Shown: positions 19,746-26,400 of the stretch, in pieces
Layout of the letters: the number at the start of each line of letters is the position of its first letter
How positions within the stretch are numbered: position 1 is the first letter of the stretch
IMG/VR virus record: IMGVR_UViG_3300007538_000135
Span: 1-27,498 of that record
Origin: a virus
Lineage: Duplodnaviria > Caudoviricetes
Strand: one strand, 5' to 3'
DNA length: 27,498 bases
The notes under the pieces: generated by a model
Told to the model about the DNA's origin: nothing
The model's input: only the letters and a program-made list of their open reading frames with translations
Database searches by the model: none
Translations under genes and position numbers: made by a program

Positions 19746-20624
19746 TTAAGTGTTCCACGCATTTCCAAATAAATCAATATGTAATCTTGGAGAATATCGC
19801 CAACCATTTTGCAAAGCAATGTTAGCAACTGTAGTAGAATTAAAAGAATATTCTTCTGATCTACCTCCAACTGGCATAACATACACTGGGCAATTAATAT
19901 TTACACTACGATAGTCTTCAATTGCTGAAATAACTTCGTTAACATCGTTGCTATCCATAATAACAAATTTAAAATACATGTTACTGTTATTAACACTATA
20001 ATATTCAAAAGCAACATCGTTCCTAATAGCATCAGTTCTACATTCACCGGAAACTGATAGTTTTGGAGAGCAACTCCAAGTGATTTTAATTTTCGTTTGA
20101 TCATTAAGGTAATCCTTAAATTCTTGATGTAATCGTTGTGTTGTATTAGTTTCAAATGTTACATTTTTTAAATTTTTCATTTTTGGATGATTAAACAAGC
20201 TAATGTAGATTTTTTGCCATCCTAATAACGGTTCACCACCTGTAATTATTAAGTGTATGTCTTGCCCGTCGTTTGTTACCCAATCGTTATTTGGAGTTAA
20301 CGATATTAACTTGTCTACTAATTCATCTACTGTACTATCGGTTGCGTACTTTTTAAATTCAGGATATACACTAGCATAAGTATCGCAACCTGTTTTTATA
20401 ATTGGCAACTCTTCAAAGGTATTTATGTTTGACAATATATTATTATCAAGGAGTGATTTAACTTCTGCATTATATTTTTGTTTTTTAGTATCTCGAGGTA
20501 ATCCAAAACCTTGACATCTAAAGTTGCACCCGAATGTACGTAAAAATACACTAGGTACACCGGCATGCAGACCTTCACCTTGAATTGAATAAAAGCACTC
20601 TGTATAACGAAGTTTTTGTGTCAT
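19746..20624 (-). CDS. queE: 7-carboxy-7-deazaguanine synthase QueE-like radical SAM enzyme (likely start MTQKLRY at 20624)
   Basis: E.FYSIQGEG...GVPSVFLRTFGC, CDT, IITGGEPLL, FETN.T, SPKL, FKFV, YVMP, SPRLH.DLFGN motifs; AAGGA RBS precedes the ATG at 20624, whereas the track start (20660) lies inside the promoter. Confidence 0.88.
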   Translation of the reverse strand: MTQKLRYTECFYSIQGEGLHAGVPSVFLRTFGCNFRCQGFGLPRDTKKQKYNAEVKSLLDNNILSNINTFEELPIIKTGCDTYASVYPEFKKYATDSTVDELVDKLISLTPNNDWVTNDGQDIHLIITGGEPLLGWQKIYISLFNHPKMKNLKNVTFETNTTQRLHQEFKDYLNDQTKIKITWSCSPKLSVSGECRTDAIRNDVAFEYYSVNNSNMYFKFVIMDSNDVNEVISAIEDYRSVNINCPVYVMPVGGRSEEYSFNSTTVANIALQNGWRYSPRLHIDLFGNAWNT

Positions 20625-20634
20625 GAATAGATCC

Positions 20635-20676
20635 TTAATAGTGTTACAAATATGTAACATATTGTAACACTATTAA
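20635..20676. repeat. 42-bp near-perfect palindrome (candidate operator or hairpin)
   Basis: ttaatagtgttacaa-a-tatgt-a-acata-ttgtaacactattaa: 15-bp perfect outer arms plus a 5-bp inner palindrome. Confidence 0.85.
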
Positions 20677-20689
20677 TAGTAGAAGTCAA
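20661..20689 (-). promoter_or_regulatory. sigma70-type (early/middle) promoter for the queE-rnh operon
   Basis: Minus strand TTGACT (20689-20684), 17-nt spacer, TACAAT (20666-20661) with an extended -10 TG. Confidence 0.75.
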
Positions 20690-20696
20690 AGGTTTA

Positions 20697-23153
20697 TTAA
20701 GGTAATGGTTGATCGTTTTGTTTAATTTTCTTTTGCATTGCTAAGGTTAATTTGTGATACAATTTAGGATTAGTTTGAACTAACTCTAGTGCGGTACTTT
20801 CATCAATTGCATTATTAACGTCTTGGTTATTGATTAAACTAGGCTCTTTAATTACTGCATAGTTAGCTAATTCTGCATAATACGGTTGTGTAGACAGTAC
20901 TGTGTTTATATGCCTAGGATTCTTCTTAATCTTATCAAAGTCTATTTTATATTGATTAAGTGACACCGAACGATTATGCCTGTTAATAATAATATTGGGA
21001 ATAGTACGTTCAATTAACTCAAAGATTTCATTGCTAACAGGACGAGTTAAAAGGTCTAAAAATTTATTAACAGGATCATTGTAAATAATTTTAGTTCCAG
21101 AATATATTTGTTGCCATGCAGGAGTACTATACATACTTAAAAGTGACTGTGTCGCAAGCATTTGTAACTCGTTAGATTGGGGGAATAATGCTATGTTTCC
21201 ATACCACTTTTTCACTAACGCAACTTGAATGTTTTTTGTTATGTATGGTTTAATTGATGCATAATGAGGCGACCCTCCATTTTCAATATATTTAATCAGC
21301 AAGTCTTCTGTAACATACTCTTTAGGAATTGCTGATACGTCGCGAGTTACTTGCAGATACATACTTGCATTAGTTTTGTTCCATGAATTTTGATTCTTAG
21401 CTAATACTGAAAAACTTGAGCCGAAACGACCATTCTTTAGTAAAGAATAGAATATTGCTTGACAAACAAATTTAGTTCGATGTTTTTCAGAAAGATTGTC
21501 ATATAATACTTGAGAATTAAAAGACCCAAGAACTGAATGGTAATAATGTACTAGCACATCCATTATTAATTCGTTAAGTTCTTTATCTGAAATATCATCG
21601 TTAAGATGTTTTACACATGATGGATCTTTTTTTATCGCATATGCTGCTAATGCCATGTACCTAGGAGTGTCGTGCGGAATTATTGATAAATTATGTGCAT
21701 TTCGTTTTAATGAATTTTTAACAGTAATATAATTAAAATACTTTTCATCCAGATCAGATAATAGTATAATACCTTTTGACACTGCAAATGCGATTATTTT
21801 ATTTTGCTGGTTTTTTGGTAGTGTATCTAACGGAACTTCAGATAATGATCCCGAATGGCTTAAATACTCTTTTATAGTATCAACATTAGTTTTTTGATCG
21901 TCTGGGAGATATATATAAAAATAGTATTTAAATGCGTTAATAACAGGCTGTAGTTTTTTTATATTTTCACTAGAAGGTAATAAATCTGTTTTAATAACAT
22001 ACAAAATACTAGAATACTCGTCAAAACTTGCAAGTGAATCGGCTAATTTGATTACTAAACTTGAAAGCAGTTTATCAGGTAGTTCAGAAAACAACTTAAC
22101 AAGCATATTAGGATTGTTATATACTACTGAAGTTAAGTAATCTTCGTTTAACTCTGCCGAAGGGACATTTCTCCATTTTGAGCCATATCTATCAAAAGTA
22201 GTTGCTGCCGAACCTAGTCGTTTAATTGTAGAGTTAAATTCATTATGATTATATACGTTTTTGCTTAGGTAAAAAACACCATCTAGTTTTCTTGATTCGT
22301 TAACTGAATTAACCCAATTTACAACGATATCTACAAACTCTTCTGGATAAGAACCATGTTTTGAATAAACTCTATCATGAGCACCGAATGCAATAGTATA
22401 GTCATCTTCATTAATGAACGGTTTAATTGCTATACGTGCATGTGGATCATCGAGGGCTATATCATCATTATCGATTAAATATGCTACTATAACACCTTCT
22501 GCAATATCAGTTGGAATATACTTAGCATTTGATCCTGTGTCCAAATTAAGACATGATTCCCATTTTTTCCCTGTAGACATTTCTGCAACATCATATTTAT
22601 TTCTTGATATAACAACAAGTTGTTTAGCCTGACTTTTATTTTTAACTAATGGATCTGTTTCAAATTTACGCAGTAACGACTGATCTTTAATTACATTTTT
22701 TAAAATACTACCTATCTTTACAACACGAGGGTTTGATAGTTTTTTAACAATTCCTTTTTGATAATCCACTAATTCAAAGTTCATCTTATTGATTTTTAAT
22801 ATTACAGAAGGATCTGGTATTAGATTTTTGTTAGTTCTAGCAGGATCGTCATGATACAACTTTAGAGTTTTTTTATCCTTATTAAGAACTTTTTCTAATG
22901 ACATCTTAATATCTTTAGCTGATTCAACTGCTAAACCTTTTTGATAGTCTGTAATAAAATACCCTGCATCCTGCAAAGCATGTACAACATCGTCATTTGG
23001 TTGATACGGTGATATAGGAATATAGATTCGATCTTCGTTACCAAATATATCATCCCATTGTGAAGGACTGTAATTTAGTTCTGATAATTGTTCATCTATC
23101 CATTTTTTATTTTCAAGATCTAATGCTTCTATAATAAGCTCTGCTATTCTCAT
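20697..23153 (-). CDS. Large hypothetical protein, probable capsid-internal protein with DUF4116-like helical repeats (start 23153 or 23159)
   Basis: N-terminus MRIAELIIE-A resembles T4 capsid-targeting/prohead protease leaders; conserved-looking domain ISR..YDVAEMSTGKKWESC; C-terminal repeats of the type (I/V)P....T......A(V/I)..(N/D)P..(I/L). Confidence 0.7.
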   Translation of the reverse strand: MRIAELIIEALDLENKKWIDEQLSELNYSPSQWDDIFGNEDRIYIPISPYQPNDDVVHALQDAGYFITDYQKGLAVESAKDIKMSLEKVLNKDKKTLKLYHDDPARTNKNLIPDPSVILKINKMNFELVDYQKGIVKKLSNPRVVKIGSILKNVIKDQSLLRKFETDPLVKNKSQAKQLVVISRNKYDVAEMSTGKKWESCLNLDTGSNAKYIPTDIAEGVIVAYLIDNDDIALDDPHARIAIKPFINEDDYTIAFGAHDRVYSKHGSYPEEFVDIVVNWVNSVNESRKLDGVFYLSKNVYNHNEFNSTIKRLGSAATTFDRYGSKWRNVPSAELNEDYLTSVVYNNPNMLVKLFSELPDKLLSSLVIKLADSLASFDEYSSILYVIKTDLLPSSENIKKLQPVINAFKYYFYIYLPDDQKTNVDTIKEYLSHSGSLSEVPLDTLPKNQQNKIIAFAVSKGIILLSDLDEKYFNYITVKNSLKRNAHNLSIIPHDTPRYMALAAYAIKKDPSCVKHLNDDISDKELNELIMDVLVHYYHSVLGSFNSQVLYDNLSEKHRTKFVCQAIFYSLLKNGRFGSSFSVLAKNQNSWNKTNASMYLQVTRDVSAIPKEYVTEDLLIKYIENGGSPHYASIKPYITKNIQVALVKKWYGNIALFPQSNELQMLATQSLLSMYSTPAWQQIYSGTKIIYNDPVNKFLDLLTRPVSNEIFELIERTIPNIIINRHNRSVSLNQYKIDFDKIKKNPRHINTVLSTQPYYAELANYAVIKEPSLINNQDVNNAIDESTALELVQTNPKLYHKLTLAMQKKIKQNDQPLP

Positions 23154-23272
23154 TTCCATTCCATCGCTAAATAAAAATTATAAACAAACCGACAAGAGCC
23201 GACAATTTGATTTAATTGTTGTTCTTGTGTTTTATTAGGAAATAATCTATACTTATATTTCAATCGTTGCAT
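23150..23272 (-). pseudogene. tnpB: Truncated tnpB (IS200/IS605 OrfB N-terminal fragment), 40 aa
   Basis: Own translation: MQRLKYKYRLFPNKTQEQQLNQIVGSCRFVYNFYLAMEWK*, matching the TnpB N-terminal pattern YKYR.YP...Q...L....G..RFVYN..L; no RuvC or Zn finger follows. Confidence 0.88.
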
Positions 23273-23277
23273 AAGGA

Positions 23278-23285
23278 TATTTATC
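23278..23285 (-). promoter_or_regulatory. T4-like late promoter (GATAAATA) within the IS remnant
   Basis: TATTTATC on the + strand, 5 nt upstream of the tnpB-fragment ATG; same octamer as at 4726, 9634 and 16063. Confidence 0.6.
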
Positions 23286-23348
23286 AATTCGCTCTTATCC
23301 CCGACCTGAAGTTCGGGGTTTTACGCTCAACTGGATAAATTAATATAG

Positions 23349-23381
23349 AAAAATACGCTTTTATTGTAAAAGCGTATTTTT
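23349..23381. terminator. Rho-independent terminator (bidirectional form) downstream of the 1346-aa gene
   Basis: aaaaatacgctttta-ttg-taaaagcgtattttt: 15-bp perfect inverted repeat with A/T tracts on both flanks, 33 nt past the stop at 23415. Confidence 0.8.
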
Positions 23382-23414: not shown

Positions 23415-26400
23415 CTAATTCCAATTATTATTAGCTCGATATTTAATAATGTATGCCGGTCTAAGCATCCACATATTATTTTGTCGCATATTTACATTAC
23501 TAATATCAACCCATTGATTATTAATTTTAACTTTTGGTTTTGATTGATAATAGTTACTTCCAAATAACTCAACTACTGGTAAACTCATAATTTTTGCCTC
23601 CTCATAAAATGCTCTGACTCTAGGAAATGAATAATACTCGGGTTCTGTATAGTTAGATTTTGGTGTAATTGCCCATTGATCAGTTCGACCGTATTGTTGA
23701 GGACTTTTCCAATTTAAAAATACGCATTCGTCTGATTTTGGATGATCTTTCACCAAATTAATCCACCATTCAATCGCTTCGGAGTAAATATGGTAAATTG
23801 TGTTTACACCGTCTTCCTCCCATAACAATCTCATTATATTATAAAGCAATGTGGCCGAAGGGCCTGGACATCCTAAACCACCTTCATACATAGTAAACGA
23901 TGGAATGATAACATCACCGTCTGTGTCTAACCCAAAAACATTTTCTCCAGTTTCTTCATTTACAACTTTGTAAATTTCATAATAATGATTATCTTCATAT
24001 GTTAGTTTAGTATGTAATCCTTCCCACGCATAATGTACTACTTCATTTAACGTCCAAGGATATAATGCTGGAGCTGCTAACTTTTCTAAGTCTAATACTT
24101 CTTTTTCTAAAAAGTCCGAATAATATCCGTTTTCTGTAATAGCATCATATGGAATCCCTAAAATGTTTTTTGTAAAATATTTTGCATATCGCCATACAGT
24201 AATTGTAGTGTATCTCCCAAACGTCCCTAAACACCGTATCAATCTACGTTTTTGTTGTTTAGGATCGTCCCATGAGCGATACGGTTGTAATAACCCATTA
24301 GAACCTGCAAATACAGAATCGAAAATATCAAATACATATTGGGAGTATTTTGCATATCCTAATAACGAAGCAGTATATGTAGGATTACCTGAAGTTTGCT
24401 CGTATTCAGGAAGTACTGATATTAAATTCTCATCTTGACCATATATACTTAAAAATTGCCCAGTTGCTAATGCACCGTTCCACGGTTCGTTACCACATTC
24501 TAAATATAACCGTAAGCTTGGATCTAAGTTATCTCTAAACATTGTAGCAATATGAATATAATATTCAGGAGGTGAAGCTACAGGCACATTTAACCAACAG
24601 TCTTGTTTAAGACGATTACATATTTCAATCATAATTTCGTGAGGTACGTTTACACCTTGATTAACATATGATGCGTGACTTAACTTACCCATCATTGAGA
24701 TATCACCTGCACAAAAGTGGTACACGTTAGCCCACGAATAGTCTAAAAATCTCTGACACTTAAACATTTCCTGTCTTTCTAAAAATTCAGGATAAAATTT
24801 TTCACCAGAGTCGTATAGCTCTAAGTATCTTTCTTCGACTAATTCAACATTTCTAATATGATTTGCTGGATTTGTAGATAACCATGTGATTAAAAAACCT
24901 GCTTGGGTTAAATGCCATAAAATTTCCGGTTCTTCTTGAGTATCAATGCCGTATTCCATATATACATCTTTGCCATCTGCTGTTCTACCAGAACAATCGA
25001 TATAATATGTAATGCTGTTTGATGTTCTTGAGATTTCTGTAACTGGATGCGACGACGCTGATAATCCTATAGTGTTTTCCATAGTAATATCCCCTTCCCC
25101 TTCCCATCGTAACACATATCTTCCAGATTGATGAAATGGAGGGATCATCATACTAGCACCGATATTACGCCAAGGTGATGAATTTCTAGCAGCCATCATA
25201 GAATACTTATATCCTGTTGGTATAATTCTAGGATATCCGTCGTCGTCCATATTTAAGTCATCTGTATGGTCAATTCTAAACTTTTTAATATACCAATATT
25301 TGCGACGCTTACTATCTAAATCAATGCTATTTGCTGTAAAGGGAGTGTCAACAGTTGCAACAACTGTAGATGGAGTCTCAACTGCTGATACAAATTTAGT
25401 ACCTTCAGCAACACCTTCACCGAGCATACGTTTATCGTATAGCACATCATTTAACAATTTATACCAGTCACCACCGTTATCTTTATCAATAATAAATGTA
25501 GTTTCGCCTGCATTAAATGTAATTTTACGAAAGATTAAGCGTGTCCCAAATGTTGAAAATGAATTATCTACACCATTACCATCTACAGATTTATCACGGT
25601 ATAACCAACCGTAATATTTAGTAGTTTGTGGGAAATAATAGCCATAGTCTACAGCATCTCTTGCAATACCTCCAGAAGCATGCTTAACAATGTTAAGAAA
25701 TATATTGTTAGTACCGTACCAGCTATTTCCTGTTTGATTTTGCCCGTGTTTATGTTTTGGGGTTCTATTCCAACTTTTAATATATGGAACTTTAATTTCA
25801 ATATCACCTATATAGTCTATCTTAGGATAAAATGCTTTAGCATTGCTTGCAATAAAACTAAAAGGATAAGATAACGGTTCAGGTTCATCTGGTACATAAG
25901 CATCAGCTGTAGCACCTTCGTTAATCATTAGTCCATATACATACGAAGACGCATACAACGGCGTCCACGGTAAGTATGCTGGATCAGGATTACCTTCTAT
26001 TAACGGTTGACTAGGTTGATTTAAAATAATTCTAAGAGGAATTGGTTTATATGAAAATCGTAACGGATCTGCAGTTCCAGGAGCCCATTGATAAAATAAT
26101 CGATTACCTTGAGATCGTGTTGTTGTAAATGTTAATTCTGCTCGATTCCATGTGCTAGTGTTAGTTGATACATAGTTTGATTGGTGTGTTGTTTGATCAA
26201 ACAATCGTAATGCACCGTAAAACTCAAGTTTTCCTTTTACAAATATTCCAACACCTACCGGCATTGTTTCATCGATTGTAACTGAACTAACATTTCCTTG
26301 ACTATCTGCTACATTAACCGAACCTACTGGAGGAGTAAAGCTATAAGATACTACAGACCATACATGTTGCAATGGATTAAATTGTTTAAAAATTTTAATA

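Follow-up and report, generated by a model that had tools for sequence, protein, structure and literature searches.

Remnant of a tnpB-only IS605-family element with a predicted late-promoter motif beside an 818-aa gene in a freshwater jumbo phage

In phage T4, promoters of downstream genes are located inside homing endonuclease genes, an arrangement that favors retention of the endonuclease (PMC2988022), and the principle that a mobile element supplies the promoter of its neighbor is already known. The locus described here resembles the free-standing homing endonucleases of T4 (segG and gene 32) described in the same source in that a mobile nuclease gene likewise holds a downstream promoter. 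However, the T4 promoters lie inside an intact endonuclease open reading frame (ORF), whereas here the motif resides in a dead transposon of an RNA-guided nuclease. The T4 late promoter is an 8-bp TATA box without a -35 element, whose first base is numbered -13 (PMC2988020), and for phages CBB and GAP32 the late promoter motif has been predicted to be ATAAATA (PMC5259590). The core motif at our locus is the same, and it likewise precedes structural genes; different from those systems, it is preceded by a G, and its promoter role is predicted from sequence.

The features of the IS200/IS605 family are those given in PMC13565253. With the enterobacterial elements of the IS1341 group, our locus shares the TTAT 5' of the left end, the subterminal hairpin, and a tnpB located directly downstream. 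In contrast to them, it is cut after codon 35 and lacks RuvC, the zinc ribbon, and the right-end terminus, and ATAAATA takes the place of the TAAAAT found before tnpB in the enterobacterial copies. The reading that we prefer, to which we assign a probability of roughly 0.55, is that a tnpB-only element of the IS605 family, inserted after TTAT in a jumbo phage and then truncated, carries an internal late motif that likely drives the adjacent 818-aa gene. While a remnant of an insertion sequence is in itself ordinary, the noteworthy part is the late box before tnpB, which a virion gene has likely captured.

Identity and extent of the element remnant

The stretch of DNA analyzed (the window) is a 27.5-kb virus record, in which genes for tail fibers, virion proteins, and an exonuclease are accompanied by one that is QueE-like. 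The same virus was also seen as a 68.7-kb contig (G001), estimated to be 20% complete, so that the genome should be roughly 340 kb, and it is also present in freshwater metagenome runs; the virus carrying the remnant (the stump, from here on) is a freshwater jumbo phage. A large ORF without a family match ends at 23415 on the minus strand, upstream of the stump, and is followed, in this order, by a 15-bp hairpin, TTAT, a GC-rich hairpin, the 40-codon ORF, and the 818-aa gene (Table 1).

Table 1. Features of the locus (positions in the window)
Feature	Position	Strand	Remarks
Terminator-like hairpin in phage DNA, after the upstream large ORF	23349..23381		15-bp perfect stem, 3-nt loop, U5 inside the 3' arm; termination predicted
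TTAT target tetranucleotide, outside the element	23335..23338	-	Boundary common to annotated IS200/IS605 elements and the X12 contig
IS605-family left end	23286..23334	-	Its subterminal hairpin, CCCCGA/TCGGGG, spans 23318-23299
GATAAATA, predicted phage late promoter inside the element	23278..23285	-	5 nt before the tnpB ATG; putative activity
tnpB codons 1-35 (HTH_OrfB_IS605)	23168..23272	-	ATG without Shine-Dalgarno (SD) sequence
14-nt junction linker, not tnpB	23154..23167	-	Contains the weak GGA SD and CGATGG
ATGA overlap	23150..23153	-	TGA ends the 40-codon ORF, ATG starts the 818-aa gene
818-aa gene, large jumbo-phage protein family	20697..23153	-	Likely virion packaged, therefore late

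The first-pass annotation had recognized the N terminus of TnpB in the short ORF and had attributed it to the IS200/IS605 family, and both assignments held. The 40-aa product, encoded at 23272-23150 (minus strand) and beginning MQRLKYKYRLFPNKTQ, matches the HTH_OrfB_IS605 profile (PF12323) with an E value of 5.8e-15 and 55 bits, the cutoff being 21 bits. The CCCCGA/TCGGGG hairpin was also found where it had been described. On its own it folds modestly better than shuffled sequences (z of -1.8 to -2.1), and its support is one of homology, since it is common to annotated IS200/IS605 elements, with which the window shares TTAT followed by CC...CGTAAAACCCCG..CTTCAGG.CGGGGAT. All six stem pairs are kept in five out of five aligned elements, with covariation that is not significant (53/500). 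Moreover, a search of a plasmid collection returned 892 records that match the query over its first 50 bases, and in two annotated ones the match precedes a tnpB gene or a tnpA-tnpB pair, identity beginning at TTAT.

The same left end (23338-23278) occurs in a contig of run X12 in a different flanking context. Since identity begins at TTAT and the X12 copy has a different flank, the left boundary, which had been placed at this tetranucleotide, is secure; TTAT emerged unprompted in three comparisons and was part of the query pattern in one further search. The locus thus combines a left end with a subterminal hairpin, no terminal inverted repeats, a fixed short target, and tnpB, the last represented by its 35 N-terminal codons only, and we assign 23334-23168 (minus strand) to an IS200/IS605 element of the tnpB-only type, of which this segment comprises the left end and the first 35 tnpB codons. 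No other copies of the left end, the hairpin, or pieces of tnpB were found in the 68.7-kb contig, and an Rfam search returned chance miRNA-type matches only.

Three further observations concern this left end and its target. In record 5 of run X12, a single 151-nt contig of depth 2, another genome shows nearly the same left end (23278-23338) up to the end of the ATAAATA position, beyond which the sequence is different and unlike this tnpB start, possibly representing a second stump. Related elements at locus L016 (1770-1805) and in the window (23381-23335) are both inserted at TTAT directly after a terminator-like hairpin. Furthermore, TTAT is contained in the reverse complement of ATAAATA, which makes late boxes possible insertion targets for the opposite strand.

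A search for longer relatives of the peptide returned two proteins, namely P0005, an intact 404-aa TnpB on a JGI metagenome contig of 1583 bp, and P0004, a 125-aa form with an internal deletion and hence another deletion derivative. The window and P0005 are identical in 34 of the first 35 residues and then diverge; P0005 is full length, and the stump is cut short. It follows that the fragment of 40 tnpB codons originally described is indeed an ORF of that length, but only codons 1 to 35 derive from tnpB, 14 nt separating the last of them from the next gene. The loss of the RuvC region and of the right-end terminus, also proposed at first, is supported. The locus has neither the RuvC and zinc-ribbon domains nor the right-end omega RNA of an active TnpB/OMEGA nuclease, and the stump is a remnant rather than a complete element. 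No C-terminal TnpB match was found in the window or in the 68.7-kb contig, which at about 20% of the genome leaves room for copies elsewhere.

The right ends of the related subfamily terminate in a full hairpin plus TAGTTCAC (L055-L059 and L026). The 14-nt linker contains neither TAGTTCAC nor TCAA, and what it retains is no more than a 6-nt arm. This CGATGG, which immediately follows the breakpoint, agrees with the right-end arm expected from the C-terminal codons of the parent (chance of about 0.008) and may be one arm of the right-end hairpin. The parent DNA was not found among viral contigs or in species genomes, where the best segment reached 49% over a short stretch. Such elements commonly decay: of 14 further left-end loci, 3 are broken or devoid of tnpB. 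In one enterobacterial-type element (L020), the start of tnpB runs into unrelated sequence as a 154-aa ORF, which is an independent truncation. Because the stump is close to its parent, its intact ORF indicates youth as easily as selection. A functional 40-aa peptide was considered and rejected, the peptide appearing to be a cut piece of the TnpB N terminus.

The late-promoter motif of the stump and of its subfamily

The octamer GATAAATA, overlooked in the first-pass annotation, contains ATAAATA and so matches the predicted late-promoter motif of this phage. On the coding strand from 23500 to 23150, the stump holds the only exact copy of ATAAATA, copies with one mismatch occurring at 23495, 23446, 23381, and 23256; consequently, it is also the only exact late motif between the terminator-like hairpin and the 818-aa gene. 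In G001, ATAAATA is found within 60 nt upstream of 9 of the 56 ORFs (1 of 56 for the opposite strand), and in the related genome G003 it is found upstream of 16 of 129 (6 for the opposite strand). The three other GATAAATA sites of the window are all located 26 to 32 nt before genes of the tail cluster, whereas 8-mers of the same composition fall in such zones in 9 of 568 cases; the leading G was chosen after the data had been seen, and the octamer is not overrepresented across the window (4 found versus 3.5 expected). As expected of a late promoter, the (T)ATAAATA box is enriched upstream of structural genes.

With the T4 numbering, position +1 would fall on the A of the tnpB ATG, so that the mRNA would be leaderless, which fits the absence of an SD sequence before tnpB. 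A search for a gp55-like sigma factor, conducted with PF04542 (sigma region 2), gave no match in three partial genomes that are 20 to 45% complete. Two sigma70-like sites with 10 of 12 matching positions (23370-23342 and 23205-23177) represent alternatives, in a total count that is near chance (6 found versus 3.5 +/- 1.8 expected).

The motif belongs to the element subfamily. We found 17 loci with the subfamily alignment, 10 of which are 46 to 56% identical to P0005, and 8 of these 10 include the 5' end. In seven of the eight, representing two distinct elements, (A/C)TAAATA lies 4 nt before the tnpB ATG, the exception being L071; the motif-bearing loci L055-L058, L062, and L070 are in large-phage contigs. 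TAAATA is only weakly enriched in G004, host of the CTAAATA element. Among other elements with this left end, none of five carries the motif, and four of the five (the enterobacterial copies L003, L017, L018, and L020) have TAAAAT 6 nt before the ATG. This hexamer probably represents a sigma70 -10 box, at a distance that would likewise make the mRNA leaderless. The phage-borne elements and the enterobacterial ones, which are IS609-like and have a TTAT target, would both fit a leaderless tnpB mRNA with a swapped promoter type. No report of a late-box swap in phage-borne tnpB elements was found in the open-access literature, a scope outside which most subscription papers fall, and the accessible parts of PMC7824862 and bioRxiv 10.64898/2026.09.24.754181 contain nothing on late boxes in tnpB elements.

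It is possible to hypothesize, although we hold this broader reading only tentatively, that one subfamily of IS605 TnpB elements became adapted to jumbo phages, the phage late box replacing the host sigma70 -10 box before tnpB and making it a leaderless late gene, and that at our locus a virion gene depends on the box and the 40-codon leader of the dead element as its only promoter and translation start, so that the stump cannot be lost. If this were true, TnpB transposons would be tied into the lytic program of large phages in the manner of T4 homing endonucleases; the nuclease would be made late in infection, at a time when genomes of co-infecting phages are there; and remnants of TnpB elements could provide late promoters to phage genes and in this way change their control. 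It would also mean that ORFs below the annotation threshold can indicate where such regulatory grafts lie in phage genomes.

The 818-aa gene and its possible modes of expression

The gene downstream of the stump had been given a length of 820 aa. The likely start at 23153 yields 818 aa, in agreement with close homologs that begin MKLRELFxEAL, and the start at 23159 was discarded since the homologs align from 23153. Residues 1 to 351 have 2137 relatives at an E value of <=0.001; among phage records, 41 contain relatives, and the best match is that of Agrobacterium phage Atu_ph07, whose homolog is gp394 (E value of 4e-32). This protein was detected in the Atu_ph07 virion by mass spectrometry, with 18 peptides and 41% coverage (PMC6102473, Table S5), so that the 818-aa product is likely part of the virion and would have to be expressed late. 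Neither Pfam nor PHROG gave a match for it. The structure model of residues 1 to 351 is confident (pLDDT of 91.8) and shows a repeated beta-hairpin module; it gave no PDB match at an E value of <=0.001, only weak matches of the GNAT-fold and PcfJ-like type. The N-terminal domain belongs to a widespread, uncharacterized jumbo-phage virion family.

The gene for gp394 (L093) has ATAAATA 32 nt upstream. Considering the family as a whole, 74 loci of relatives were fetched; after removal of 9 duplicates and of 5 loci whose start could not be used, 60 remained, including that of the window. ATAAATA lies within 70 nt upstream in 14 of these 60 (5 for the opposite strand), four times at a distance of 4 to 5 nt. 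The remaining 46, which include the closest homolog (L083), whose gene follows another gene and has an AGGA SD sequence, lack the motif within that distance, and for this reason a native promoter at our locus is not proven.

In the reading that we prefer, an element of a subfamily that lives in large phages, with a late box 4 to 5 nt before tnpB and an mRNA start at or next to the AUG (leaderless), would have inserted here; a deletion from codon 36 would then have removed RuvC, the right end, and probably the promoter of the 818-aa gene itself. The late RNA polymerase would start at the box of the stump, read the 119 nt of stump and linker, and continue into the 818-aa gene. The weakest step is the one that follows, in which ribosomes would translate the 40-codon leader, stop on AUGA, and reinitiate with the help of the weak GGA, direct initiation at GGA being a possible alternative. 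The 40-aa peptide would probably be a by-product, and retention of the stump would be forced rather than adaptive: it would be kept because losing it would mean losing the promoter.

A neutral young scar is the main, though less likely, alternative. In this case the mRNA of the 818-aa gene would come from the upstream operon, by read-through, or from a sigma70-like site, its GGA would suffice for translation, and the stump would be a mere passenger with a late box left over from the element. Such a scar would agree with the single amino-acid change from the parent, the other decayed copies of such elements, the closest homolog without a promoter of its own within 70 nt, and the weak SD sequence of the 818-aa gene. 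The same can be said of the ATGA overlap, which arises in about 19% of trials with random junctions, and of the ATGA start itself, shared by 27 of the 56 ORFs of the phage. Against this, a perfect 15-bp hairpin separates the gene from the upstream ORF, with an RNA folding energy of -14.7 kcal/mol for the folded stretch and a z of -5.6, and the box of the stump is exact and spaced as in native genes, so that it is expected to fire. The hairpin is AU rich and was not listed by a terminator scan; since the upstream ORF appears in an operon with an ATAAATA of its own, read-through of the hairpin could supply mRNA.

The first-pass annotation had suggested that the remnant was kept as an expression cassette, a leader ORF coupled by its translation to a downstream gene with no obvious SD sequence. 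In this form, with the 40-codon ORF selected and its translation opening the start region of the 818-aa gene and setting its level, the proposal appears improbable. The ATGA is present, the TGA of the 40-codon ORF overlapping a conserved start as in coupled gene pairs, and the leader, without an SD sequence, fits leaderless initiation. Moreover, partial pairing is predicted around the start of the 818-aa gene, with an accessibility of 0.42, and only 12 of 56 ORFs have a lower value. However, the lack of an SD sequence was overstated, as GGA is found 6 nt before the start (-3.3 kcal/mol; 33 of 56 phage ORFs have a stronger one), and the argument for coupling is weak because the overlap is near chance (about 0.19) and the gene has this weak SD sequence of its own. 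What survives of the cassette is its transcriptional side: it is plausible because the stump has the only exact late motif between the terminator-like hairpin and the virion-family gene. A still-mobilizable miniature element with both ends, moved by TnpA in trans, is very improbable. The left end is intact and CGATGG fits a right-end arm, but the full hairpin and TAGTTCAC of the subfamily are absent and the element is single copy in 68.7 kb.

Persistence of the stump and its surroundings

Contigs over all or part of the stump, from runs X6 (2017), X9 (2023), and X12 (2025) of three studies, none of them marked as the source, are identical to the window, which shows presence of the stump over years, not fixation. 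The X9 contigs span the whole stump and both junctions without differences, beside a diverged allele of the 818-aa gene. An empty site was sought in several ways, and none was found. Searches with the 818-aa protein found only this virus, with one locus each, 99.99% identical to the window; one of four QueE-related loci was inspected and is not syntenic, and neither is the locus of the closest homolog. No joint across the stump was present in the contigs of eight runs, contigs being prone to drop rare variants, and X8, X11, X13, X14, and X15 are uninformative in this respect because they have little or no cover at the stump.

The X9 allele diverges at window positions 21131-22990, with about 2 to 7% differences, while the contigs of the stump and of the upstream ORF are identical, a pattern that suggests allele exchange by recombination or mixed strains. 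It carries 18 synonymous and 10 nonsynonymous codon differences, as fits a working gene.

Two minor observations concern the neighboring genes. At 20600-20690 (minus strand) we could notice a near-consensus sigma70-type site, TTGACT-17-TACAAT, ending at the first listed ATG of the QueE-like gene, whose true start is therefore probably a later ATG. Finally, 38 nt of the upstream ORF (23939-23976) are about 89% identical to another sequence, in four runs.
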